DNA from: Candidatus Krumholzibacteriia bacterium | GTDB lineage: Bacteria; Krumholzibacteriota; Krumholzibacteriia; Krumholzibacteriales; Krumholzibacteriaceae | Reading direction: 5' to 3' | Assembly (NCBI GenBank): GCA_028696635.1 | Contig: JAQVGR010000001.1 | Coordinates: 1-25,786 of the forward strand | Length of the DNA stretch: 25,786 nucleotides | Part shown: positions 8,233-17,538 of the stretch, one piece after another | Layout: every line of letters begins with the position of its first letter | Position numbering within the stretch: the stretch's first letter is position 1 | The notes under the pieces: generated by a model | What the model saw: the letters and a program-made list of their open reading frames with translations, nothing else | Database searches by the model: none | What the model was told of the DNA's origin: nothing | Translations under genes and position numbers: made by a program

Positions 8233-9230
8233 GACCCTGTCCCTCCGACCTTTTCCTTGATGCGCCTGTTCACGCCGTTGAGCACGAACCGCTCGGCCGC
8301 GAGAACGGCGTTCCTGACGGCCTTGGCGGACGATCCGCCGTGACCGATTATCATCACTCCATCGACGCCGAGCAGCGGCATTCCCCCGTACTCGGCATAA
8401 TCGAGGGTCCGCTTCATATGCGAGAAAGCGGGCCTCATCAACAGGGCCCCCGCCCTCGCGAGCAGGCTGTCCTCGATCCCCTCGCGCAGCAGCGTGCCGA
8501 CGTACGAGACGATGCTCTCTGCGAACTTCAGCAGCACGTTGCCGACGAATCCGTCGGTGACGACGACGTCGACCGTGCCGGATATGACGTCCCGGCCCTC
8601 GACGTTCCCCGCGAAGTTCAGTCCGCTCGCCGCGATTCGCCGGTGCGCCTCGCGCGTCAGATCGTTCCCCTTCGAAGGCTCCTCGCCGATGCTGAGCAGT
8701 CCGATCCTCGGATTCGTCCGTCCGAGGAAGAGCTCCGCGTAGGCGGAGCCCATCAGGGCGAACTGCTCGAGATGGACCGGCAGGCATTCGGCGTTCGCTC
8801 CCCCGTCGAGCACTATCGTCCCGCCGTTGCGGGACGGATAGAGGATCGCGATCGCCGGCCTGTCGATCCCCGGTATCCTCCCCAGCGAGAGCAGCGCGCT
8901 CGCCACCGCCGCCCCGGTGTTCCCCGCGCTGACCACCGCTTCGACCGCTCCCTCGCGGTGCAGACGGGTCGCGACGGCGATCGATGAATCCTTCTTGCGC
9001 CGGATCGCGGTGGCGGGGCTCTCCGACATCCCGACCGCCTCCGACGCATGCACGATCTCGAGGTGGTCCGTCGGCAGGGCGCTCTCCGCTATATGGCGCT
9101 CGATCTCCTCCCGCCTGCCCACGAGCACGATCGTGAACCGCCCCGCCCCCGCGGCAGCCGCCTCGGCGGCTCCGTCGATGATATCGAGGGGCGCCCGGTC
9201 ACCGCCCATGGCGTCCAACGCGATCTTCAT
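8229..9230 (-). CDS. plsX: Phosphate acyltransferase PlsX
   Basis: MKIALDAMGGD start, VSAGNTGA, IDRPAIA, LDGGANA, GNVEGRD, TDGFVGNV, GMPLLGVDG, HGGS; start moved from 9953 to ATG 9230 with GGAGA SD. Confidence 0.97.
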   Translation of the reverse strand: MKIALDAMGGDRAPLDIIDGAAEAAAAGAGRFTIVLVGRREEIERHIAESALPTDHLEIVHASEAVGMSESPATAIRRKKDSSIAVATRLHREGAVEAVVSAGNTGAAVASALLSLGRIPGIDRPAIAILYPSRNGGTIVLDGGANAECLPVHLEQFALMGSAYAELFLGRTNPRIGLLSIGEEPSKGNDLTREAHRRIAASGLNFAGNVEGRDVISGTVDVVVTDGFVGNVLLKFAESIVSYVGTLLREGIEDSLLARAGALLMRPAFSHMKRTLDYAEYGGMPLLGVDGVMIIGHGGSSAKAVRNAVLAAERFVLNGVNRRIKEKVGGTGS

Positions 9231-9309
9231 CGTCTCTCCAAGCCGCGCCCGTCCCCGCCCCGGCGCGCCGAAGGCGATTGGCGTACGGCCGATGCCCCCG
9301 GAGAAATCC

Positions 9310-9498
9310 CTACTCTTCTTTTTCCTTGGGCTTGACGATCTCGCGCCCGCCGTAGTATCCGCAGTTCGGACAGACCGCGTGGGCCGGCTTGGGCTGATGG
9401 CAATGCGAGCATTTCGCCAGAGACGGCGCCACGGCCTTGTAGTGCGCCCGCCGCATTCGTTTTCGCGCTTTCGATGTTCTATGCTTCGGTACAGCCAT
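9310..9498 (-). CDS. rpmF: 50S ribosomal protein L32 (zinc-ribbon form)
   Basis: MAVPKHRTSKARKRMRRAH, CxxC...CxxCGYY; SD GGAGG; canonical yceD-rpmF-plsX order. Confidence 0.96.
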   Translation of the reverse strand: MAVPKHRTSKARKRMRRAHYKAVAPSLAKCSHCHQPKPAHAVCPNCGYYGGREIVKPKEKEE

Positions 9499-9526
9499 TC
9501 CTTGACCTCCCGGTTCCGGGGAATAT

Positions 9527-10066
9527 TCACCGTTCGTCGTCTTTGTTCAACAGTTTTTTCAGATCCCCCCATCGGGGATCGCCGTTCCCGTCCCCGCAGC
9601 CGCAGGGCCCCTCGTTCCTGTTCGCCCCGCACCGGGGACAGATACCCGCGCACTCCTCCCTGCAGAGGAACCTGATCGGCATCTCGAGCAGTATCGACTC
9701 TCTCACATGGGGAAAGATGTCGTACCGGTACTCCTCCCCCTCCCCGAGCAGGACGAAATCGGCCTCTTCGATCCCTTCGGGGACTGCGGCGCCGCCTCCC
9801 CGCTGGAGCACGACGCTGAACGCCGTCTCGAGCCCGTGCTCGAACGGCGCGAGGCACCGGGCGCACTCGGCCTGTATCGCCGCACGGATCGTTCCCTCGA
9901 GCAGGAACCGGTTTCCGGACTTCGTCATGACAGCCGTGACCGCCGCCCTGCACTGCAGATCCTCCCCGCCGCCGCCGGTCAGAGCGAACCCCTCGTCGAA
10001 CGAGAAGGATTCGCGGTCCCCGGCGTGGCCGAGGTCTATCTGCATCTGCGGAAAATCCTTGTCCAT
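9527..10066 (-). CDS. yceD: YceD/DUF177 family protein
   Basis: CARCL, HVRESILLEMP, LCREECAGICPRCGANRN, DPRWGDLKKL; directly upstream of rpmF. Confidence 0.93.
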   Translation of the reverse strand: MDKDFPQMQIDLGHAGDRESFSFDEGFALTGGGGEDLQCRAAVTAVMTKSGNRFLLEGTIRAAIQAECARCLAPFEHGLETAFSVVLQRGGGAAVPEGIEEADFVLLGEGEEYRYDIFPHVRESILLEMPIRFLCREECAGICPRCGANRNEGPCGCGDGNGDPRWGDLKKLLNKDDER

Positions 10067-10072
10067 GAAGCG

Positions 10073-10104
10073 ATTATACTATTCGCGGCCGAACACGATG
10101 GCAA
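10073..10104 (-). promoter_or_regulatory. Internal promoter overlapping the ndk stop, driving yceD-rpmF-plsX-fab
   Basis: Minus strand: TTGCCA (10104-10099), N17, TAGTAT overlapping a perfect TATAAT (10078-10073), then 6 nt and the yceD ATG; no SD. Confidence 0.6.
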
Positions 10105-10483
10105 GTTCTTTTTCCGCAGAGGACCGGGAGTCGGATGCATGCACGGCGTTGGCCTGCAGCGACGTGCCGTACATGTACCGGATCGTCCCGGGACGCGCGG
10201 AGGCGGGATCGGTCGCGCCGACGAGCTCGCGCAGCAGCGCGACGCCCTCCTCCTTCTCCAGCTCCATCCCGACGACCTCGCCCGATGTGATGTACGCCAC
10301 CAGCGCCTCGAAGAACGGCTTGCCACGATGGACGCCGTAGAACTCCCCGGCCGTGCCGGCGTCGAAGCGAAACTGCTTCATCCGCCTTATCCTGAACCGG
10401 TTGGCCAGCAACATATCTATGATCCGTCCCTGGTGCCCCGCCGCGACGGCCTCCGGCTTTATCATCAGAAAGGTCCTGTCCAC
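10079..10483 (-). CDS. ndk: Nucleoside diphosphate kinase
   Basis: TFLMIKPE, FYGVHRGKPFF, GATDP, PGTIR, NAVHASDS phospho-His motif; SD AGGAGG, GTG start. Confidence 0.96.
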   Translation of the reverse strand: MDRTFLMIKPEAVAAGHQGRIIDMLLANRFRIRRMKQFRFDAGTAGEFYGVHRGKPFFEALVAYITSGEVVGMELEKEEGVALLRELVGATDPASARPGTIRYMYGTSLQANAVHASDSRSSAEKELAIVFGRE

Positions 10484-10513
10484 GTCTCCTCCTGTGTCCC
10501 TGCCGGACGCGTC

Positions 10514-11386
10514 TCAGCCGGTGACGCGCCTGACGATATCGACGATCTGTGCGGGGGTGTCGGCCACCTCGACGCCGACCTCCTTGAAGGCGGCTATCTT
10601 CCCCTCGGCGGTCCCCGCGCCGCCGGCGATAATCGCGCCGGCGTGCCCCATCCGCTTCCCCGGGGGGGCGGTCCTGCCGGCGATGAAGGCGGCGACCCTC
10701 TTCGGATAGCCGTCGCGTATCATCCGGGCGGCCAGCTCCTCGTCGTTTCCGCCGATCTCGCCGATCAGCACCACAGCGTCGGTCCCCTCGTCTGCTGCGA
10801 AGAGCGACATCGCATCGAGCAGGTTCGTGCCGACTATCGGATCGCCCCCGATCCCGATGCAGGTCGATTGCCCGAAGCCGCTCTGAGAGAGATGATGCAC
10901 GATCTCGTAGGTGAGGGTGCCGCTGCGCGAGATGACGCCGACGCGCCCCTGCCGGTGGATCTCTCCCGGCATGATCCCGACTTTCGCCAGGCCAGGAGAT
11001 ATCACGCCCGGGCTGTTCGGGCCTATGAGCCTGGTGCCGCGTTCCCTGAGGAACGGAAGCGCCCGCACCATGTCGCGCACGGGTATCCCCTCCGAGATGC
11101 ATACGACCAGGCCGATCCCGGCGTCGGCGGCCTCGCAGACCGCATCGGCGGCGAACGAGGCGGGGACGTAGATCACGCTCGTATCGGCGCCCGTCGCGGC
11201 GACCGCGTCGGCGACCGAGTCGAAGACGGGGACGCCGTCTTCGGTCTTCGCGCCGCCCTTGCCCGGCGTCACGCCGGCGACGACCTTTGTCCCGTAGGCT
11301 ATCATCTGCCGGGCGTGGAATCCGCCGTCGCGCCCGGTGATCCCCTGGACGACGAGGCGAGTCTCTTTTCCGACCAGAATGCTCAC
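10514..11386 (-). CDS. sucD: Succinyl-CoA synthetase alpha subunit
   Basis: [39 protein letters not shown] phospho-His motif. Confidence 0.97.
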
Positions 11387-11429
11387 AGTACGATTCCTTT
11401 CTGTCGATACCGCCCCCAGGGGACGGAGA

Positions 11430-12563
11430 TCAGCCGCGTGCAGCAGCGATGGCGCCCTTCACCGCTTCATCCATCGTCTCGGCGCCGATCAGGTCGGTGC
11501 CGGCGAGGAGTTCTCCCGCCTCGCGCGCGTTCGTGCCGGTCAGCCGGACGACGAGCGGGACATCGAGCCCGAGCCGCTTCTTCGCCTCGATCAGCCCCAT
11601 GGCTACGTCGTCGCACCGGGTGATGCCGCCGAAGATGTTGATCAGGATCGCCTTCACGCTTGGATCGCGGAGGATGATCCGCATCGCGGCGAGCACCTTG
11701 TCCGGGCTCGAGCTGCCGCCGATGTCGAGGAAGTTCGCCGGCTCGGCGCCGTAGTGCTTGATCATGTCCATCGTGGCCATCGCGAGCCCCGCCCCGTTGA
11801 CGACGCAGCCTATCGATCCGTCGAGCTTGACGAACGACAGCCCCGCCTCGCGCGCCGCCGTCTCGCCCGGATCCTCGTCTGCCGTGTCCCGGAGCGCCTC
11901 TATCTCGGGGTGGCGGAAGAGCCCGTTGTCGTCGATGTTTATCTTCGCGTCGATCGCCCAGACGGTCCCGTCCTGGCTGAGAACGAGGGGGTTGATCTCG
12001 GCGAGCGAAGCGTCGACGCCCATGAAGGCGTCGTAGAGAGCCTGCAGGACCGCTCCTATCTGTTTGGCCACCGCCCTGTCCCCGGTGAGGAACGAGGTGA
12101 GGCGCCGCGTCTGAAAGGGCATCAGCCCCCCTTCGGGGTTGAGGGGGAGCTTGAGGATCCTCTCCGGAGCGGTGCGCGCCACCTCCTCGATATCCACCCC
12201 TCCCGAGGGCGACACCATCATCATCGGCCTGCGGGTGACGCGGTCGAAGACCATCGCCGCGTAGAACTCCTTCACGATATCGACGGCCCGGGCGACAAGA
12301 ACCTTCTCGACGGCCAGGCCCTTGATCTCCATTCCCAGGATCGTCCCGGCCTTCTCCCCCGCCTCGCGGGGCGATGAGGCGAGCTTGACCCCCCCGGCCT
12401 TCCCCCTCCCGCCGACGAGCACCTGCGCCTTGACGACGACCGGACAGCCGAGCTCCTCGGCGGCCGCTTCGGCGGCCCGGGGGTCGGCGACGAGTCGGCT
12501 CGGCGGAACGGGCAGGCCGAACCGGGTGAAAATGGCGCGGGCGTCGGATTCGTGTATCTTCAC
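11430..12563 (-). CDS. sucC: Succinyl-CoA synthetase beta subunit
   Basis: KIHE start, [51 protein letters not shown]; start set to GTG 12563 with GGAGG SD. Confidence 0.97.
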
Positions 12564-12610
12564 TGGCTGCACCTCCGGCATTCGTTGGGCGCCGCCCCGC
12601 GGAGGCGCCG

Positions 12611-13948
12611 CTATTCGAGAAAACGCGCGAGGGCGTCGCGCAGATCCGGCGAGCCGATCTCGGCGAGATCGTACGTGACCCGTACCGACGGCTGAGCGAT
12701 CCTGATGATCCGCCCGAGATCTATCGGCGTTCCGACCACGACCGTGTCGCACTGGACCGCCGCGATCGTCTTCTCGAGGTCCCGGATCTGCTCCGTGCCG
12801 TATCCCATCGCCGGCAGGAGCGTCCCGATGCCGGGGTAGCGCTCGAAGGTCCGCATGATCTTACCCGCGGCCCAGGGCCGCGGATCGACGAGCTCGGCCG
12901 CCCCGTACTTCATCGCGGCCATGACGCCGGCGCCGTACCGCATGCCGCCGTGCGTCAGCGTCGGGCCGTCCTCGACGCAGAGGACCCGCTTGCCGCGGAT
13001 CAGGCCCGGGTCGTCGACGTGCAGCGGCGAGGCCGCGTCGACGACTATCGCGTCGGGGTTGTAGGCGGCGATGTTCTCCCTGACCTTCTCGATCCCGCAC
13101 AGGTCGGCCGTGTCGATCTTGTTGATCACGATCACGTCGGCCATCAGGAGGTTGACGAACCCGGGATAGTACTCGACCTCGTGCCCGGGACGGTGCGGGT
13201 CGACGACGGTGATCGCGCAGTCGGGCTTGTAGAACGGCATGTCGTTGTTGCCGCCGTCCCAGAGTATGACGTCCGCTTCCCGCTCGGCCTGCCTGAGGAT
13301 CGCCTCGTAATCGACGCCGGCGTAGATGATGACTCCGCTGACGATGTGCGGCTCGTACTCCTCCATCTCCTCTATCGTGCAGTGGTGTTTCTCGAGATCG
13401 TCGAGGCTGGCGAACCGCTGCACGGCCTGCCTGGCGAGGTCGCCGTACGGCATCGGGTGCCTGATCGCCACGACCTTCCTGCCCGCATCGAGCAGGATCC
13501 TGGCCACGCGGCGGGTCGTCTGGCTCTTGCCGCACCCGGTGCGCGTGGCGCAGATCGAGATGACCGGCTTCGAGCTGCGGATCATCGTCGGCTCCGCTCC
13601 GACGAGCGAGAAATGGGCGCCGAGCGAATTGACGAGCTGCGCCTTCTCCATCACGTACTGGTTCGAGACGTCGCTGTAGGAGAAGACGACCTCCGCGACC
13701 TCGCCGTCGACGATCAGCTGCTCGAGCTCCTCCTCCGAGTGGATCGGGATCCCGTCGGGGTAGAGCGGCCCGGCGAGCTCGGGCGGGTACTTGCGCCCCT
13801 CGATGTCGGGGATCTGCGTCGCCGTGAAGGCGACGACCTCGACCGACCGATCGTCCCGGTAGAGCGTGTTGAAGTTATGGAAATCCCTTCCCGCCGCACC
13901 CATGATCAGGATGCGCCGCCGTGCCGTGCCTCGCTCGACCTCCGTCAC
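12611..13948 (-). CDS. P-loop enzyme of the COG2403 / cyclic-2,3-diphosphoglycerate-synthetase-related family, arginine synthetase (ArcE)-like clade
   Basis: GAAGRDFHNFN, AFTATQIPDIEGRKYPPELAG, Walker A TRTGCGKSQT, IRHPMPYGDL, WDGGNND, EDGPTLTHGGM, LPAMGY; start set to GTG 13948 after SD GAGGAGG. Family certain by motif, activity inferred. Confidence 0.8.
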   Translation of the reverse strand: MTEVERGTARRRILIMGAAGRDFHNFNTLYRDDRSVEVVAFTATQIPDIEGRKYPPELAGPLYPDGIPIHSEEELEQLIVDGEVAEVVFSYSDVSNQYVMEKAQLVNSLGAHFSLVGAEPTMIRSSKPVISICATRTGCGKSQTTRRVARILLDAGRKVVAIRHPMPYGDLARQAVQRFASLDDLEKHHCTIEEMEEYEPHIVSGVIIYAGVDYEAILRQAEREADVILWDGGNNDMPFYKPDCAITVVDPHRPGHEVEYYPGFVNLLMADVIVINKIDTADLCGIEKVRENIAAYNPDAIVVDAASPLHVDDPGLIRGKRVLCVEDGPTLTHGGMRYGAGVMAAMKYGAAELVDPRPWAAGKIMRTFERYPGIGTLLPAMGYGTEQIRDLEKTIAAVQCDTVVVGTPIDLGRIIRIAQPSVRVTYDLAEIGSPDLRDALARFLE

Positions 13949-13974
13949 GATTCCTCCTCTGTCCGTTCGGGGCC

Positions 13975-14475
13975 TCATCGGCCCGCCGTTCCTTCACGCG
14001 ATCGGCCGATCCTGTCGATCAGCTCGCTCGACGAATATCCTTCGACCATCGGGATCCGGACCACCCGGCCCCCGCTCTCCCTGACGAGGTCCTCGCCGAC
14101 GATCTCGCCCGCGCCGTACTCCGCTCCCTTGACGAGAACGTCGGGGCGCAGCGCTGCGATCGTCTCGAGCGGCGTGTCCTTGTCGAACACCGTCACGAAA
14201 TCGACGCTGCGCAGGTGCAGCAGGATGAAGGCGCGGTCCGGCGCGGCGGTCACGGGCCGGGACGGCCCCTTGAGCCGCCGCACCGAGTCGTCGCTGTTGA
14301 TGCCGACGACGAGGCAATCGCCGAGCCCGCGCGCCGTCGCGAGGAGCTCCACGTGCCCCCGGTGCAGGACGTCGAAACATCCGTTCGTGAAGACGATCCT
14401 CACTCCGGCCAGCCGCGCCCGCAGGCCGGCGAGCTCATGACGCTCCAGCGCTCCGCCGGGCCGGCCCCCGTCCAT
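13975..14475 (-). CDS. rfaE2: D-glycero-beta-D-manno-heptose 1-phosphate adenylyltransferase (stand-alone HldE domain II)
   Basis: VFTNGCFDVLHRGHV (HxGH), GINSDDSVRRLKG, PDVLVKG, YSSSELI. Confidence 0.92.
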   Translation of the reverse strand: MDGGRPGGALERHELAGLRARLAGVRIVFTNGCFDVLHRGHVELLATARGLGDCLVVGINSDDSVRRLKGPSRPVTAAPDRAFILLHLRSVDFVTVFDKDTPLETIAALRPDVLVKGAEYGAGEIVGEDLVRESGGRVVRIPMVEGYSSSELIDRIGRSREGTAGR

Positions 14476-14479
14476 AGTA

Positions 14480-15454
14480 TCAGATCCCGAACGCATCTGC
14501 CATCTCCTCCGGCTTCGCCGCCGCGGTGCCGAGCTCCCTGATCACGATCCCCGCCGCCGCGTTGGCCAGCTCGATCGCTTCGCGCAGCCCCGCCCCCGCT
14601 GCGACGGCGGCGGCGAGCACGCTGATGACCGTGTCCCCCGCACCGGTCACGTCGTAGACCTCCCTCGCTCGCGTGGGCAGATGGTGCGACAGCCTGCCTT
14701 CCTCGAACAGCGTCATCCCCTCCTCGCCCCGCGTGATCAGGACCGCCCGCGCGCCGAGGTCGCGCAGCAGGGCGCGGCCGACCCACTCGAGATCGGCTGC
14801 GCCGCGGATCTTCGTATTGTAGAACCCGGCGGCTTCCTTCAGGTTGGGGGTCACGCACCACGCGCCACGATAGAGGTCGAAGTGCCCCTCTTTCGGATCT
14901 ATGAGCACCGGCGCCGCGTCCGCGCAGAGCCGCCTGAGATCGTCCATCACGGGCATCGAGACGACGCCCTTCCCGTAATCGGAGACGACCACCGCGCCGC
15001 ATCCCTCGACCGCGTCGCCCAGCGCCGATCGCAGGCGCCCCAGCACGGGTCCGGCGACCTCCGCGTTCGTCTCGAAATCCGCCCTGACGACCTGCTGGTT
15101 GTGCGCGATGATGCGGATCTTCTCGGTGGTCACCCGCCGCCCGTCCGCGACGACGAACCGGTCGGCGATGCCCCGTTCGCCGAGCAGGCGCCTGAGCTCC
15201 CGCCCCTGGTGGTCGCGCCCGCAGATCCCCACGAGCCGCACGTCGCACCCGAGAGACATGAGGTTCCAGGCGACGTTCGCCGCCCCGCCGGGGCGGACGT
15301 TCGTCGAGGCGACCCCGACGACGGGAACCGGGGCCTCCGGGCTGATCCGCTCGACATTCCCCCAGAAGTAGCGGTCGAGCATCAGGTCGCCGACGACGGC
15401 GACCGGCGTGCCCTTTACGGCCTTGAGTATCTCCGCGGCCCTGCGCCTGCGCAT
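14480..15454 (-). CDS. rfaE1: D-glycero-beta-D-manno-heptose 7-phosphate kinase (stand-alone HldE domain I, PfkB family)
   Basis: VVGDLMLDRY, RISPEAPVPV, GGAANVA, SDYGKG, TPNLKE, DVTGAGDTV. Confidence 0.92.
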   Translation of the reverse strand: MRRRRAAEILKAVKGTPVAVVGDLMLDRYFWGNVERISPEAPVPVVGVASTNVRPGGAANVAWNLMSLGCDVRLVGICGRDHQGRELRRLLGERGIADRFVVADGRRVTTEKIRIIAHNQQVVRADFETNAEVAGPVLGRLRSALGDAVEGCGAVVVSDYGKGVVSMPVMDDLRRLCADAAPVLIDPKEGHFDLYRGAWCVTPNLKEAAGFYNTKIRGAADLEWVGRALLRDLGARAVLITRGEEGMTLFEEGRLSHHLPTRAREVYDVTGAGDTVISVLAAAVAAGAGLREAIELANAAAGIVIRELGTAAAKPEEMADAFGI

Positions 15455-15537
15455 GCTTTTTCATCCTTCCGGCGGAGGATCCCTCTCGGGGACCCATGAA
15501 TCGGAGGCGCCGGTCGGGCCCGGCGCCGTCGCCGGTC

Positions 15538-15567
15538 AATATACCCGTACGCGGAGGCCGAGTTCAA
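15538..15567 (-). promoter_or_regulatory. Candidate promoter heading the 17-gene run (TTGAAC-N18-TATATT)
   Basis: TTGAAC at 15567-15562, TATATT at 15543-15538, about 80 nt upstream of the heptose kinase ATG. Confidence 0.5.
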
Positions 15568-15641
15568 GCCCATAATCCCCGTCCCGCTGTCCCTCGGCGG
15601 CTGCAGAACCTCGTATGAGCGTGACAGTGCGGCGGCGAAGA

Positions 15642-15938
15642 TCAGAACGGCTCCTCTTCAGGCCGAAACTGCTCCCAGAGCCTTCTGAAACGGCCGAGAT
15701 ATATCGCGTCGAACAGATCGCCGCTTCCCGGAAAGACCTCGAGCACGTCCGCGCGCAGCGCCGCGATCTCCTCCTGGACCTCGTCTCCGTTCGCCTCTCC
15801 GCCGAGTATCAACGATGCGATCCGGTCCGCCTCGAGCCTGATCCCGCGCGCTATGGCGCGATCCTCGTCGTTGCGCGACGCTTCGAGCAGGGCATCCTCG
15901 ACCGGATCGCCGCCTGAATCAACGCCGTTCGGTTCCAT
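15642..15938 (-). CDS. Small acidic helical hypothetical protein (98 aa)
   Basis: Protein-like C-terminus DLFDAIYLGRFRRLWEQFR; start set to ATG 15938, 10 nt after an extended -10 TGCTATCAT (15957-15949); the longer ORF start overlaps the upstream gene. Confidence 0.7.
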   Translation of the reverse strand: MEPNGVDSGGDPVEDALLEASRNDEDRAIARGIRLEADRIASLILGGEANGDEVQEEIAALRADVLEVFPGSGDLFDAIYLGRFRRLWEQFRPEEEPF

Positions 15939-15956
15939 AATCGCAACGATGATAGC

Positions 15957-15988
15957 AGAAAGAGGGGCGCCGGGGGTACCCCGGCGCC
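15957..15988 (-). terminator. Intrinsic terminator-like hairpin after the lipoprotein gene
   Basis: Perfect 10-bp stem GGCGCCGGGG/CCCCGGCGCC (15966-15975, 15979-15988), 3-nt loop, followed on the minus strand by CCTCTTTCT. Confidence 0.55.
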
Positions 15989-16011
15989 ACCGTGAAGCCG
16001 CCCGAGCCCGC

Positions 16012-17538
16012 TCAGGAGGCGGGTTCGAAGCACTGGTCGGAGAGATCATCGTCGTCTGTGTCGCGGGAGGCAACCGGGTCGGTCTCACCGCAGACGAAGA
16101 TCTCGATGCGCAGGTCCCAGCAGGCGGGACCGAGTCCAATTAACGGCACCCGGTAGGTGTCATGACTGCCCACTCCGTCGACCGTCCAGCAGGCCGTGGA
16201 AAAGTAGTAGCTCCAGTCGCCCCCCCCCGCCGGGCGTCTGTAGACCCGGGCGTTGACCTCGGCTGTCCGCAGCCCGGCGCCGAGATCGACATCCCAGGTG
16301 AGGGTGCGCCGCTCCGCGTATCCGTCGCCGTCGGCGTCCACGACCGCCTCCCACCAGGCGTCGGCGATCACGTAGGCGGCGAGGTACGGCTCGTCGAAAC
16401 ACTGGTCCGCCAGGTCGGAGTCGTTGGCAAAGCTCCGCTCTGCGGCCTTGCCGTACCCGTCGCACTCGTAGACGTCGATGATGAACTCGTACCGTTTGGG
16501 CTCGAGCCCGTACACATCGACGTACCGCGCGTCGGCCTCGCTCTTGCCGGAGACCGTCCAGCACGGGGTCGAGTGGTACCATGTCCACGCGTCTTCGCCG
16601 ACCGGGCGGCAGTAGACGTGCGCCTGCACGAGATGGGGGGCGTCGTCGTCGACGTCGACATCCCACCAGAGCCGTCCCGCCTCGCGACAGCCGTCGCCGT
16701 CGTTGTCGACCTCGCCGCTCCACCAGGCGTCGTAGACGCTGAAGGTGACGAGCGTCTCGAAACGACGGCCGCGAAGGTCTTGATCGTCGACGCGCCCGCG
16801 GGCAGCGACGATCCCCGAGCGGCCGCACTCGTAGAGAACGATCGAGAACTCGTACGTGCCTTCCGGCAGATGGTCGACGATCACCGAGACGGTGTCCGCT
16901 TCGCCGTCGCCGACTATCTCCGCGCAGGGAGTGGTCGCGTAGTGGGTCCAGTCTCCCGCGCATATCTCGCGGTAGAAGATCTGCGCGCTGACCGTGCGGA
17001 TCGTCCCGTCGTTCATGTCTGGATCGAAGACCAGCGTCCCGCGCTCGGCGTACCCGTCGCCATCTTCGTCAACGAGGTCGCGCCACCAGGCATCCTCGAT
17101 CGCGAAGGCCGGGTCGAGGGCAAAGAGCGTATAAGTCACCTGAACGTTCACGGGACTGTTGTCTGCGGAGCATCCGTGGACGCGTACGAGGCTCTCGTAC
17201 ACGCCTGGAGGAAGATCGGTCGTGTTCACCGAGACACGCGCCCGCATGCTCTCCAGTGTGCAGCCGGGGACAGAGGTCCCTGAGGTCGGATCGAGGCCGG
17301 TCCAGTCCTCGACGGTCGTCAGCTCCCAGAGGAGGACCCCGCCCCCCGTGTTCAGGATCTGTATCTCCTGCGGCGGCGGAAGCTCGCCGCCGGCGACGGC
17401 GTTGAACGCCAGCGCGCCGGGGACGACCTTGATGTGCGGGGTGTCCGGCTCGGGACAGACGCAGTCATCGTCGAGGCACCCGCCCGCGCAGGTGAACGCG
17501 AGACAGAGGACGATCAGCGCCGCTGTCCTATCAGACAT
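16012..17538 (-). CDS. Surface lipoprotein: BACON/Ig-like domain plus three tandem about 122-aa acidic repeats (choice-of-anchor H-like)
   Basis: Hydrophobic signal ending AGG-C21; aa about 35-138 match a BACON pattern (ILNTGGG.L.W...W, V.V....L.PG.Y...V.V); DAWW recurs at aa 149, 270, 393. Confidence 0.8.
   Translation of the reverse strand: MSDRTAALIVLCLAFTCAGGCLDDDCVCPEPDTPHIKVVPGALAFNAVAGGELPPPQEIQILNTGGGVLLWELTTVEDWTGLDPTSGTSVPGCTLESMRARVSVNTTDLPPGVYESLVRVHGCSADNSPVNVQVTYTLFALDPAFAIEDAWWRDLVDEDGDGYAERGTLVFDPDMNDGTIRTVSAQIFYREICAGDWTHYATTPCAEIVGDGEADTVSVIVDHLPEGTYEFSIVLYECGRSGIVAARGRVDDQDLRGRRFETLVTFSVYDAWWSGEVDNDGDGCREAGRLWWDVDVDDDAPHLVQAHVYCRPVGEDAWTWYHSTPCWTVSGKSEADARYVDVYGLEPKRYEFIIDVYECDGYGKAAERSFANDSDLADQCFDEPYLAAYVIADAWWEAVVDADGDGYAERRTLTWDVDLGAGLRTAEVNARVYRRPAGGGDWSYYFSTACWTVDGVGSHDTYRVPLIGLGPACWDLRIEIFVCGETDPVASRDTDDDDLSDQCFEPAS
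16015..17106 (-). repeat. Three intragenic tandem domain repeats (period 121-123 aa)
   Basis: Each unit has DAWW, D-x-DGDG, D-x-D, W..Y..T.C, YEF/WDL, YEC/FVC and D..DL...F-E/D. Confidence 0.9.

Follow-up and report, generated by a model that had tools for sequence, protein, structure and literature searches.

Among arginine synthetases the characterised enzyme is ArcE of the archaeon Thermococcus kodakarensis, encoded by TK2200, which acts in the ArcE-ArcB-ArcC pathway of that organism (Michimori, Yokooji, Atomi 2024, PMC11032458; Michimori et al. 2026, PMC13260591). TK2200 has homologues throughout the Thermococcales. Formerly labelled a hypothetical protein or GTPase, it bears a distant similarity to CpgS, the cyclic 2,3-diphosphoglycerate (cDPG) synthetase, and was discovered as the enzyme that makes up for the missing arginine deiminase (ArcA) in genomes with a carbamate kinase (PMC11032458). 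It reversibly converts arginine, ADP and Pi to citrulline, NH3 and ATP, is Mg-dependent and specific for L-arginine, and prefers ADP (GDP giving 8.4% relative activity), with sigmoidal ADP kinetics consistent with a tetramer; the LpxK structure 4EHY was reported as its structural neighbour and used to infer its nucleotide dependence (PMC11032458). Wide distribution of ArcE in bacteria was already reported in 2024, Krumholzibacteriota not being listed (PMC11032458), and most Thermococcales have been described as arginine auxotrophs in which ArcE and ArcB supply carbamoyl phosphate (Michimori et al. 2026, PMC13260591). Here we consider a gene, designated arcE below, on the minus strand at 12611-13948 of a 25,786-nt stretch (hereafter the window) of contig JAQVGR010000001.1, from the Candidatus Krumholzibacteriia bacterium assembly GCA_028696635.1. 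A first-pass annotation, made from the letters alone, had described it as an ArcE-like enzyme gene that may be grouped with sucC-sucD-ndk for substrate-level phosphorylation. We consider it probable that the gene encodes a catabolic ArcE-type arginine synthetase that stands where it does by inherited gene order, and not as part of a dedicated module with succinate-CoA ligase and nucleoside diphosphate kinase.

We assign the product to the ArcE-type arginine synthetases, and not to the cDPG synthetases, on the joint evidence of sequence identity, phylogeny, fold and the gene content of the genome. The protein has no family model in Pfam or NCBIfam. Comparison with TK2200 was made via Thermococcus orthologues as proxies, in genomes reached through a short N-terminal segment of the KOD DNA polymerase, the T. 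kodakarensis record not being among the matches. Each of five Thermococcus genomes carries one strong homologue (E~1e-190, 62-63% identity, residues 19-455); four of these proteins fall into one 90%-identity cluster (201 members drawn from many named Thermococcus species), the fifth being the sole member of its own, and the T. peptonophilus orthologue, aligned pairwise, shows 62% identity and 81% positives with 0 gaps over 434 aa. The bit score against Thermococcus ArcE is ~640, compared with 16-32 against the solved CpgS structures, with which only the P-loop region aligns (9sxb, E=5e-7; 8oru, E=0.03, 16 bits). A weak homologue is also present in three of the five genomes (E~1e-4 to 1e-5), and this paralogue is the true CpgS, matching Methanothermus fervidus CpgS (8oru) at E=2e-108 and 9sxb at 8e-169. 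In a maximum-likelihood tree built from 59 sequences (the query with 19 phylum homologues, four Thermococcus ArcE proteins, 32 full-length cluster representatives and three CpgS paralogues), the query together with all phylum homologues is sister to Thermococcus ArcE, with a Shimodaira-Hasegawa-like approximate likelihood-ratio (SH-aLRT) support of 88; the CpgS paralogues lie beyond a long branch with 100% support, and no clustering of the query with CpgS was seen. The AlphaFold model, for which a 24-sequence alignment served as input, has a mean predicted local distance difference test score (pLDDT) of 92.5 and a predicted template-modelling (TM) score of 0.90. Its top Foldseek match is CpgS (E 1.5e-16, TM 0.45, 15% identity in the structural alignment), and LpxK 4EHY matches it with a TM of 0.70 by target at 10% identity. 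As for G3E/SIMIBI GTPases, PF02492 (cobW) gave a partial match of 19.2 bits, under the gathering cut-off of 20.7; an NKID motif is present in the protein. With these results the earlier placement in the ArcE clade of COG2403, apart from CpgS, is borne out.

That the gene itself is real is shown by its homologues, of which one collection contains more than 8000 and another, counted as cluster representatives, 3738. The longest open reading frame (ORF), at 12611..13978 on the minus strand, would yield 455 aa counted from ATG; with the GTG at 13948 as start, preceded by a GGAGG ribosome site, the protein is 445 aa, as long as its closest homologue (90% identical), in agreement with the boundaries of the first-pass annotation. 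The three motifs it had named, GAAGRDFHNFN, TRTGCGKS and HPMPYGDL, all occur in the translation. Across the 24-sequence alignment, G17, G20 and H24 of the first motif are invariant; of the Walker A motif, G140 is invariant and G138 and K141 nearly so (445-aa numbering). HPMPYGDL is identical in the T. peptonophilus orthologue. In two families of the phylum, f5 and f8 in our own numbering, where arcE sits outside the housekeeping block described below, the first motif reads GAAGKDFHVFN, and the sequences with this variant form a well-supported clade of their own (L039, L040, L050, L052).

Some further observations on the ArcE family were made in passing. ArcE-type genes and true CpgS-type paralogues stand together in Thermococcus genomes G151, G152 and G154 (loci L114:808-2112 (+), L115 and L116), and NCBI names both kinds of protein 'cyclic 2,3-diphosphoglycerate synthase', which looks like a propagated misannotation. 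The similarity of the window protein to its Thermococcus counterparts (62-63%) is at the level seen with other families of its own bacterial phylum (57-69%), which points to unusually slow evolution of the family or to its transfer between domains. In one homologue, P0237 (806 aa), the ArcE sequence is broken by an intein that carries a LAGLIDADG homing endonuclease domain. A stretch encoded by QXXF01000046.1, a 2473-bp scaffold of 'Clostridiales bacterium strain 16' (L056), is 100% identical to the 53 N-terminal residues of KOD DNA polymerase; it is probably a contaminant that reached the assembly from a reagent or an amplicon.

The source genome, a 2.2-Mb metagenome-assembled genome of 407 contigs whose DNA occurs in landfill metagenome runs and whose arcE has its top named homologues in Candidatus Krumholzibacteriota, contains a carbamate kinase gene (arcC; 379 bits, over the equivalog cut-off, which only two of 14 control genomes reach) and an ornithine transcarbamoylase gene (OTC, arcB; over cut-off), both on contigs other than that of the window. 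This genome is 75% complete, and within it neither a PF02274 match, indicative of arginine deiminase, nor ArgG, ArgH or the large subunit of carbamoyl-phosphate synthetase (CPS), CarB, over cut-off was found. The first-pass annotation, which had rightly seen that the window holds no arcB or arcC, had left room for a different substrate on that account; their presence elsewhere in the genome, with arginine deiminase not found, answers this doubt, and the combination of arcB and arcC without arcA for which it had proposed to search the genome is the one encountered, arcC without arcA being also the pattern that led to the family's discovery. The genome's arcB follows xerC-hslVU and its arcC stands between an aminotransferase gene and purine genes, so both lie among unrelated housekeeping genes, and the genes of the pathway are scattered in this lineage.

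Because the source genome is incomplete, the absences were checked in relatives. An ArcE homologue, essentially single copy and 57-82% identical, occurs in 140 of 151 genomes of the phylum (108 of the 117 of high quality), and arcC over cut-off in 134 of 151. A search of 46 genomes of the order gave no ArgG, save for one marginal 27.1-bit match, and none of the 25 high-quality genomes from the family yielded ArgC or ArgH; CarB is present in 16 of the 46, PyrB in 24 of 25 genomes, carB-less ones included, and a true ornithine aminotransferase in three of 25. No strong arginine deiminase was seen among the own-order genomes sampled in the phylum search, and the mid-scoring PF02274 matches in families f5, f6 and f8 (E 1e-47 to 1e-74) may be other enzymes of the amidinotransferase superfamily, not arginine deiminases. 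This pattern matches the one described for most Thermococcales, arginine auxotrophs in which ArcE-ArcB-ArcC provide ATP, ornithine and carbamoyl phosphate (PMC13260591).

Three further findings tie the ArcE family to arginine/citrulline metabolism within or near the phylum. A true arcA (E~1e-125, beside arcC) occurs in a single genus, and it is in this genus that four of 12 genomes are without arcE. In family f5, and there only, arcE lies tail-to-tail with the OTC gene. A metagenomic representative, P0146 (766 aa; L125:134-2434), joins a carbamate kinase (N-terminal 325 residues, 340 bits to TIGR00746) to an ArcE part 48% identical to the window protein; since it comes from a single 2.8-kb Logan contig, on which an assembly or frameshift artefact is possible, this fusion is no more than suggestive. 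As a side observation on the arcA-bearing genus, g27, the true arcA stands beside carbamate kinase in all 12 genomes sampled (e.g. G019:C1:2954205-2956263 and G099:C10:8940-12010), and besides the four genomes without arcE one more has an arcE fragment only, which looks like a replacement of arcE by arcA in progress.

Given 62% identity to the Thermococcus orthologues, we infer that the protein, as a P-loop enzyme, would catalyse the same reaction as TK2200, L-arginine + ADP + Pi <-> L-citrulline + NH3 + ATP, reversibly. In a chemistry that we suggest ourselves and that is not taken from the published work, phosphate would attack the guanidinium carbon as ammonia leaves, and at the P-loop ADP would then take over the phosphate of the phospho-isourea intermediate. 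In the source organism the enzyme most likely runs in the catabolic direction, since no route to ornithine or citrulline is visible, ArgC, true ornithine aminotransferase and CPS being mostly absent in relatives, and since carbamate kinase is near-universal. ArcE, ArcB and ArcC together would then convert arginine to ornithine, NH3 and CO2 with a gain of up to two ATP per arginine, and in relatives without CPS the pathway probably would also feed carbamoyl phosphate to pyrimidines. Catalytic activity, flux direction and carbamoyl-phosphate supply are predictions here; what was observed is the homology, the placement within the clade, the fold, the gene content and the way synteny varies.

As to the genomic setting, 26 of 29 related loci drawn from the own family and order have the genes in the sequence pfkB-rfaE2-arcE-sucC-sucD, and the same order extended by ndk-yceD-plsX is kept in families f6, f7 and f9. 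One genus has arcE directly followed by ndk-yceD, with a more divergent sucCD (~50% identity) ~300 kb away. In families f4, f5 and f8 arcE is found elsewhere, beside unrelated genes or OTC, and in the f4 and f8 genomes examined lpxL-pfkB-rfaE2-sucC-sucD-ndk-yceD-plsX is intact without arcE, rfaE2 standing directly before sucC. The arcE-sucC spacers range from 17 to 130 nt across relatives; those of the nearest genus sampled (17-36 nt) hold a ribosome-binding site only, and those of family f6 hold GC hairpins followed by T runs, terminator-like, after arcE. In our reading arcE takes up one position in a conserved succession of housekeeping genes, from which arcE is missing in some relatives and sucCD in others. 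In the source genome arcE is probably read through with its neighbours; its adjacency to sucCD looks like inherited gene order that carries little functional information.

Several considerations weigh against the catabolic, inherited-order reading. The source genome being 75% complete, its absences lean on those in relatives; Thermococcus orthologues stand in for TK2200 in the comparison; and the activity of the enzyme in this bacterial lineage is a predicted one. CarB occurrence is mixed even within the nearest genus sampled, and a weak class-III aminotransferase match is found in every genome, so that a non-acetylated route to ornithine, and hence an anabolic role of ArcE, is possible. The enzyme would in that case provide the sole arginine-forming step (citrulline + NH3 + ATP -> arginine) in place of ArgG and ArgH. 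Such a role would fit the failure to find ArgG in the order, apart from the marginal match, and ArgH in the family, as well as the OTC of the source genome; the ArcE reaction is reversible and sustains arginine synthesis in vivo in citrulline-fed T. kodakarensis, and the discoverers of ArcE proposed this role for some bacteria (PMC11032458). However, with ArgC in none of the 25 high-quality relatives, a true ornithine aminotransferase in only three, most relatives without CPS, and a dedicated, near-universal carbamate kinase that fits catabolism, we regard arginine synthesis as a quite unlikely function. The remaining possibility as to the enzyme itself, that it is a cDPG synthetase or a P-loop enzyme for some other substrate, such as a heptose or phospho-sugar connected with the upstream rfaE, is very improbable. 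It draws on the NCBI names of homologues, which include 'cyclic 2,3-diphosphoglycerate synthase' and 'GTPase', on CpgS being the closest solved structure, and on an upstream pfkB-rfaE2 pair as conserved as sucCD. Against these stand the disparity of the bit scores noted above and the true CpgS, which the same Thermococcus genomes carry as a paralogue of its own, across the fully supported long branch; a sugar substrate linked to rfaE is at odds with the occurrence of the rfaE2-sucC junction without arcE. The idea that arcE serves heptose metabolism together with the rfaE genes upstream was considered and rejected on that arcE-free junction and on the 62% ArcE identity.

The gene neighbourhood raises the further question whether arcE-sucCD-ndk is a co-expressed module for substrate-level phosphorylation in amino-acid fermentation, its adjacency selected for that purpose. 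The genes lie on one strand, 47 nt without a U-tract terminator separate arcE from sucC, and all three enzymes handle NDP/NTP. The arcE-sucC-sucD order is kept in f1, part of f2, f3, f6, f7 and f9, and this adjacency, seen in six of the nine families, with gaps down to 17 nt among close relatives and the Shine-Dalgarno (SD) sequence alone in the 17-36-nt gaps of the nearest genus sampled, makes co-expression of arcE with the two other enzymes likely and also counts against our preferred reading; there may be a regulatory rationale for the arrangement. Yet the block persists in f4 and f8 with arcE located elsewhere, one genus retains arcE-ndk with sucCD far removed, and f6 places its hairpin and T-run elements right after arcE; the block, moreover, runs on into unrelated genes, heptose activation upstream and yceD-plsX downstream, and the true pathway partners arcB and arcC are outside it. 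We therefore judge such a module to be the least improbable of the three alternatives, though still unlikely, and the functional phosphoryl-transfer group of the first-pass annotation is not upheld, the block occurring with and without arcE and with and without sucCD while the pathway partners are dispersed. Of the synteny in relatives, which it had proposed to check, arcE-sucC is kept in the six families, with arcE elsewhere in f4, f5 and f8 and sucCD elsewhere in one genus.

The features of the locus are collected in Table 1. The gene content reported for the downstream side, sucC-sucD-ndk, and the 47-bp distance to sucC on the same strand were read correctly by the first-pass annotation, and its remark that there is no clear terminator is broadly right: the spacer hairpin is not followed by a U tract, and the pattern scan of the region returned 3 terminator-like sites against a shuffled expectation of 2.3, that is, no terminator signal above background, one of the sites (12624-12642) lying within the 3' coding end of arcE. 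An Rfam search of 9000-16500 gave no match. On the upstream side 26 nt separate the stop of rfaE2 from the start of arcE, and the hairpin at the far end of Table 1 likely marks the start of the transcription unit. Co-transcription of arcE with its neighbours in the source genome is plausible. As a separate observation, HldE, bifunctional in Proteobacteria, is split here at 13975-15454 (-) into a pfkB kinase and an adenylyltransferase with overlapping reading frames, and the split pair is conserved upstream of sucCD across the phylum, with a lipid A acyltransferase further upstream.

Table 1. Features of the arcE locus, in window coordinates
Feature	Position	Strand	Evidence and remarks
arcE-type arginine synthetase gene (predicted)	12611..13948	(-)	445 aa, GTG start; ORF and translation
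SD sequence GGAGG, 4 nt before arcE GTG	13953..13957	(-)	read from sequence
Stop codon TAG of arcE	12611-12613	(-)	read from sequence
GAAGRDFHNFN, N-terminal, Rossmann-like first strand and loop	13868..13900	(-)	translation
Walker A / P-loop TRTGCGKS	13523..13546	(-)	translation
HPMPYGDL motif	13436..13459	(-)	translation
arcE-sucC spacer, 47 nt	12564..12610	(-)	GC-rich hairpin, RNAfold -22.9 kcal/mol, no U tract; SD for sucC
sucC, ADP-forming succinate-CoA ligase beta	11430..12563	(-)	NF001913, 476 bits, over cut-off; GTG start 12563
sucD, succinate-CoA ligase alpha	10514..11386	(-)	NF004230, 418 bits
ndk, nucleoside diphosphate kinase	10079..10483	(-)	PF00334, 147 bits
rfaE2, RfaE domain II-type heptose-1-phosphate adenylyltransferase, upstream	13975..14496	(-)	TIGR02199, 182 bits
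pfkB-family sugar kinase (RfaE domain I-like), first of co-directional run	14480..15454	(-)	PF00294, 147 bits
Promoter-like site upstream of pfkB	15538..15567	(-)	consensus match only
Terminator-like 10-bp all-GC hairpin closing the preceding gene	15966..15988	(-)	pattern scan

What this study adds is the gene-content pattern across the phylum, the separability of the sucCD adjacency from arcE, and the shared NCBI name of ArcE-type and CpgS-type Thermococcus proteins. The assignment corrects a widespread label, 'GTPase' or 'cyclic 2,3-diphosphoglycerate synthase', on a gene that ~93% of the genomes sampled from an uncultured phylum carry, and by homology it would extend the arginine synthetase pathway, experimentally shown in one archaeon so far, to a likely mesophilic bacterial lineage. 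The prediction is that the lineage needs external arginine and would gain two ATP from it, and in many members carbamoyl phosphate as well, which would help in attempts at cultivation and in the metabolic modelling of landfill and sediment communities; the eye-catching sucCD-ndk adjacency should not be taken as a functional unit. Going one step further, the pathway might be core, constitutively expressed metabolism in these organisms, which would be obligate arginine scavengers drawing ATP and ornithine from ArcE-ArcB and, in the members without CPS, their sole carbamoyl phosphate for pyrimidines. We offer this only tentatively, giving it somewhat less than even weight. If true, it would be a bacterial parallel to the Thermococcales, and the place of arcE in a housekeeping operon with succinate-CoA ligase and nucleoside diphosphate kinase would reflect the constitutive role.

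Set beside the known systems, the window enzyme shares with T. kodakarensis ArcE the P-loop, the HPMPYGD motif and the LpxK-like structural neighbour, at 62-63% gap-free identity as gauged via the Thermococcus orthologues, and the source genome, with arcC and OTC and with arginine deiminase, ArgG, ArgH and CPS not found in its 75% complete sequence, resembles that of the archaeon. Unlike T. kodakarensis, the host is a bacterium and, judged by its landfill origin, probably not a thermophile; arcE stands in a housekeeping block by sucCD-ndk and not near arcB or arcC, a proximity seen in some ArcE genomes that does not define them, and its activity is predicted from sequence. CpgS (M. fervidus, PDB 8ORU/8ORK; also 9SXB) is a distant homologue with the same two-domain P-loop architecture, but it is without GAAGRDFHNFN, the CpgS-type N-terminus being IDGEHY, and it catalyses another reaction. 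LpxK, the tetraacyldisaccharide 4'-kinase of Aquifex aeolicus (4EHY), has the P-loop kinase core in common, whereas its substrate and domain additions are different and the likeness, at 10% identity, is one of fold only. The 'GTPase' label contrasts with the preference of the characterised enzyme for ADP over GDP (PMC11032458). ArcA of the classical arginine deiminase pathway (PF02274) likewise turns arginine, in net terms, into citrulline and feeds OTC and carbamate kinase, but it does so with an unrelated fold, hydrolytically and irreversibly, and conserves no ATP.

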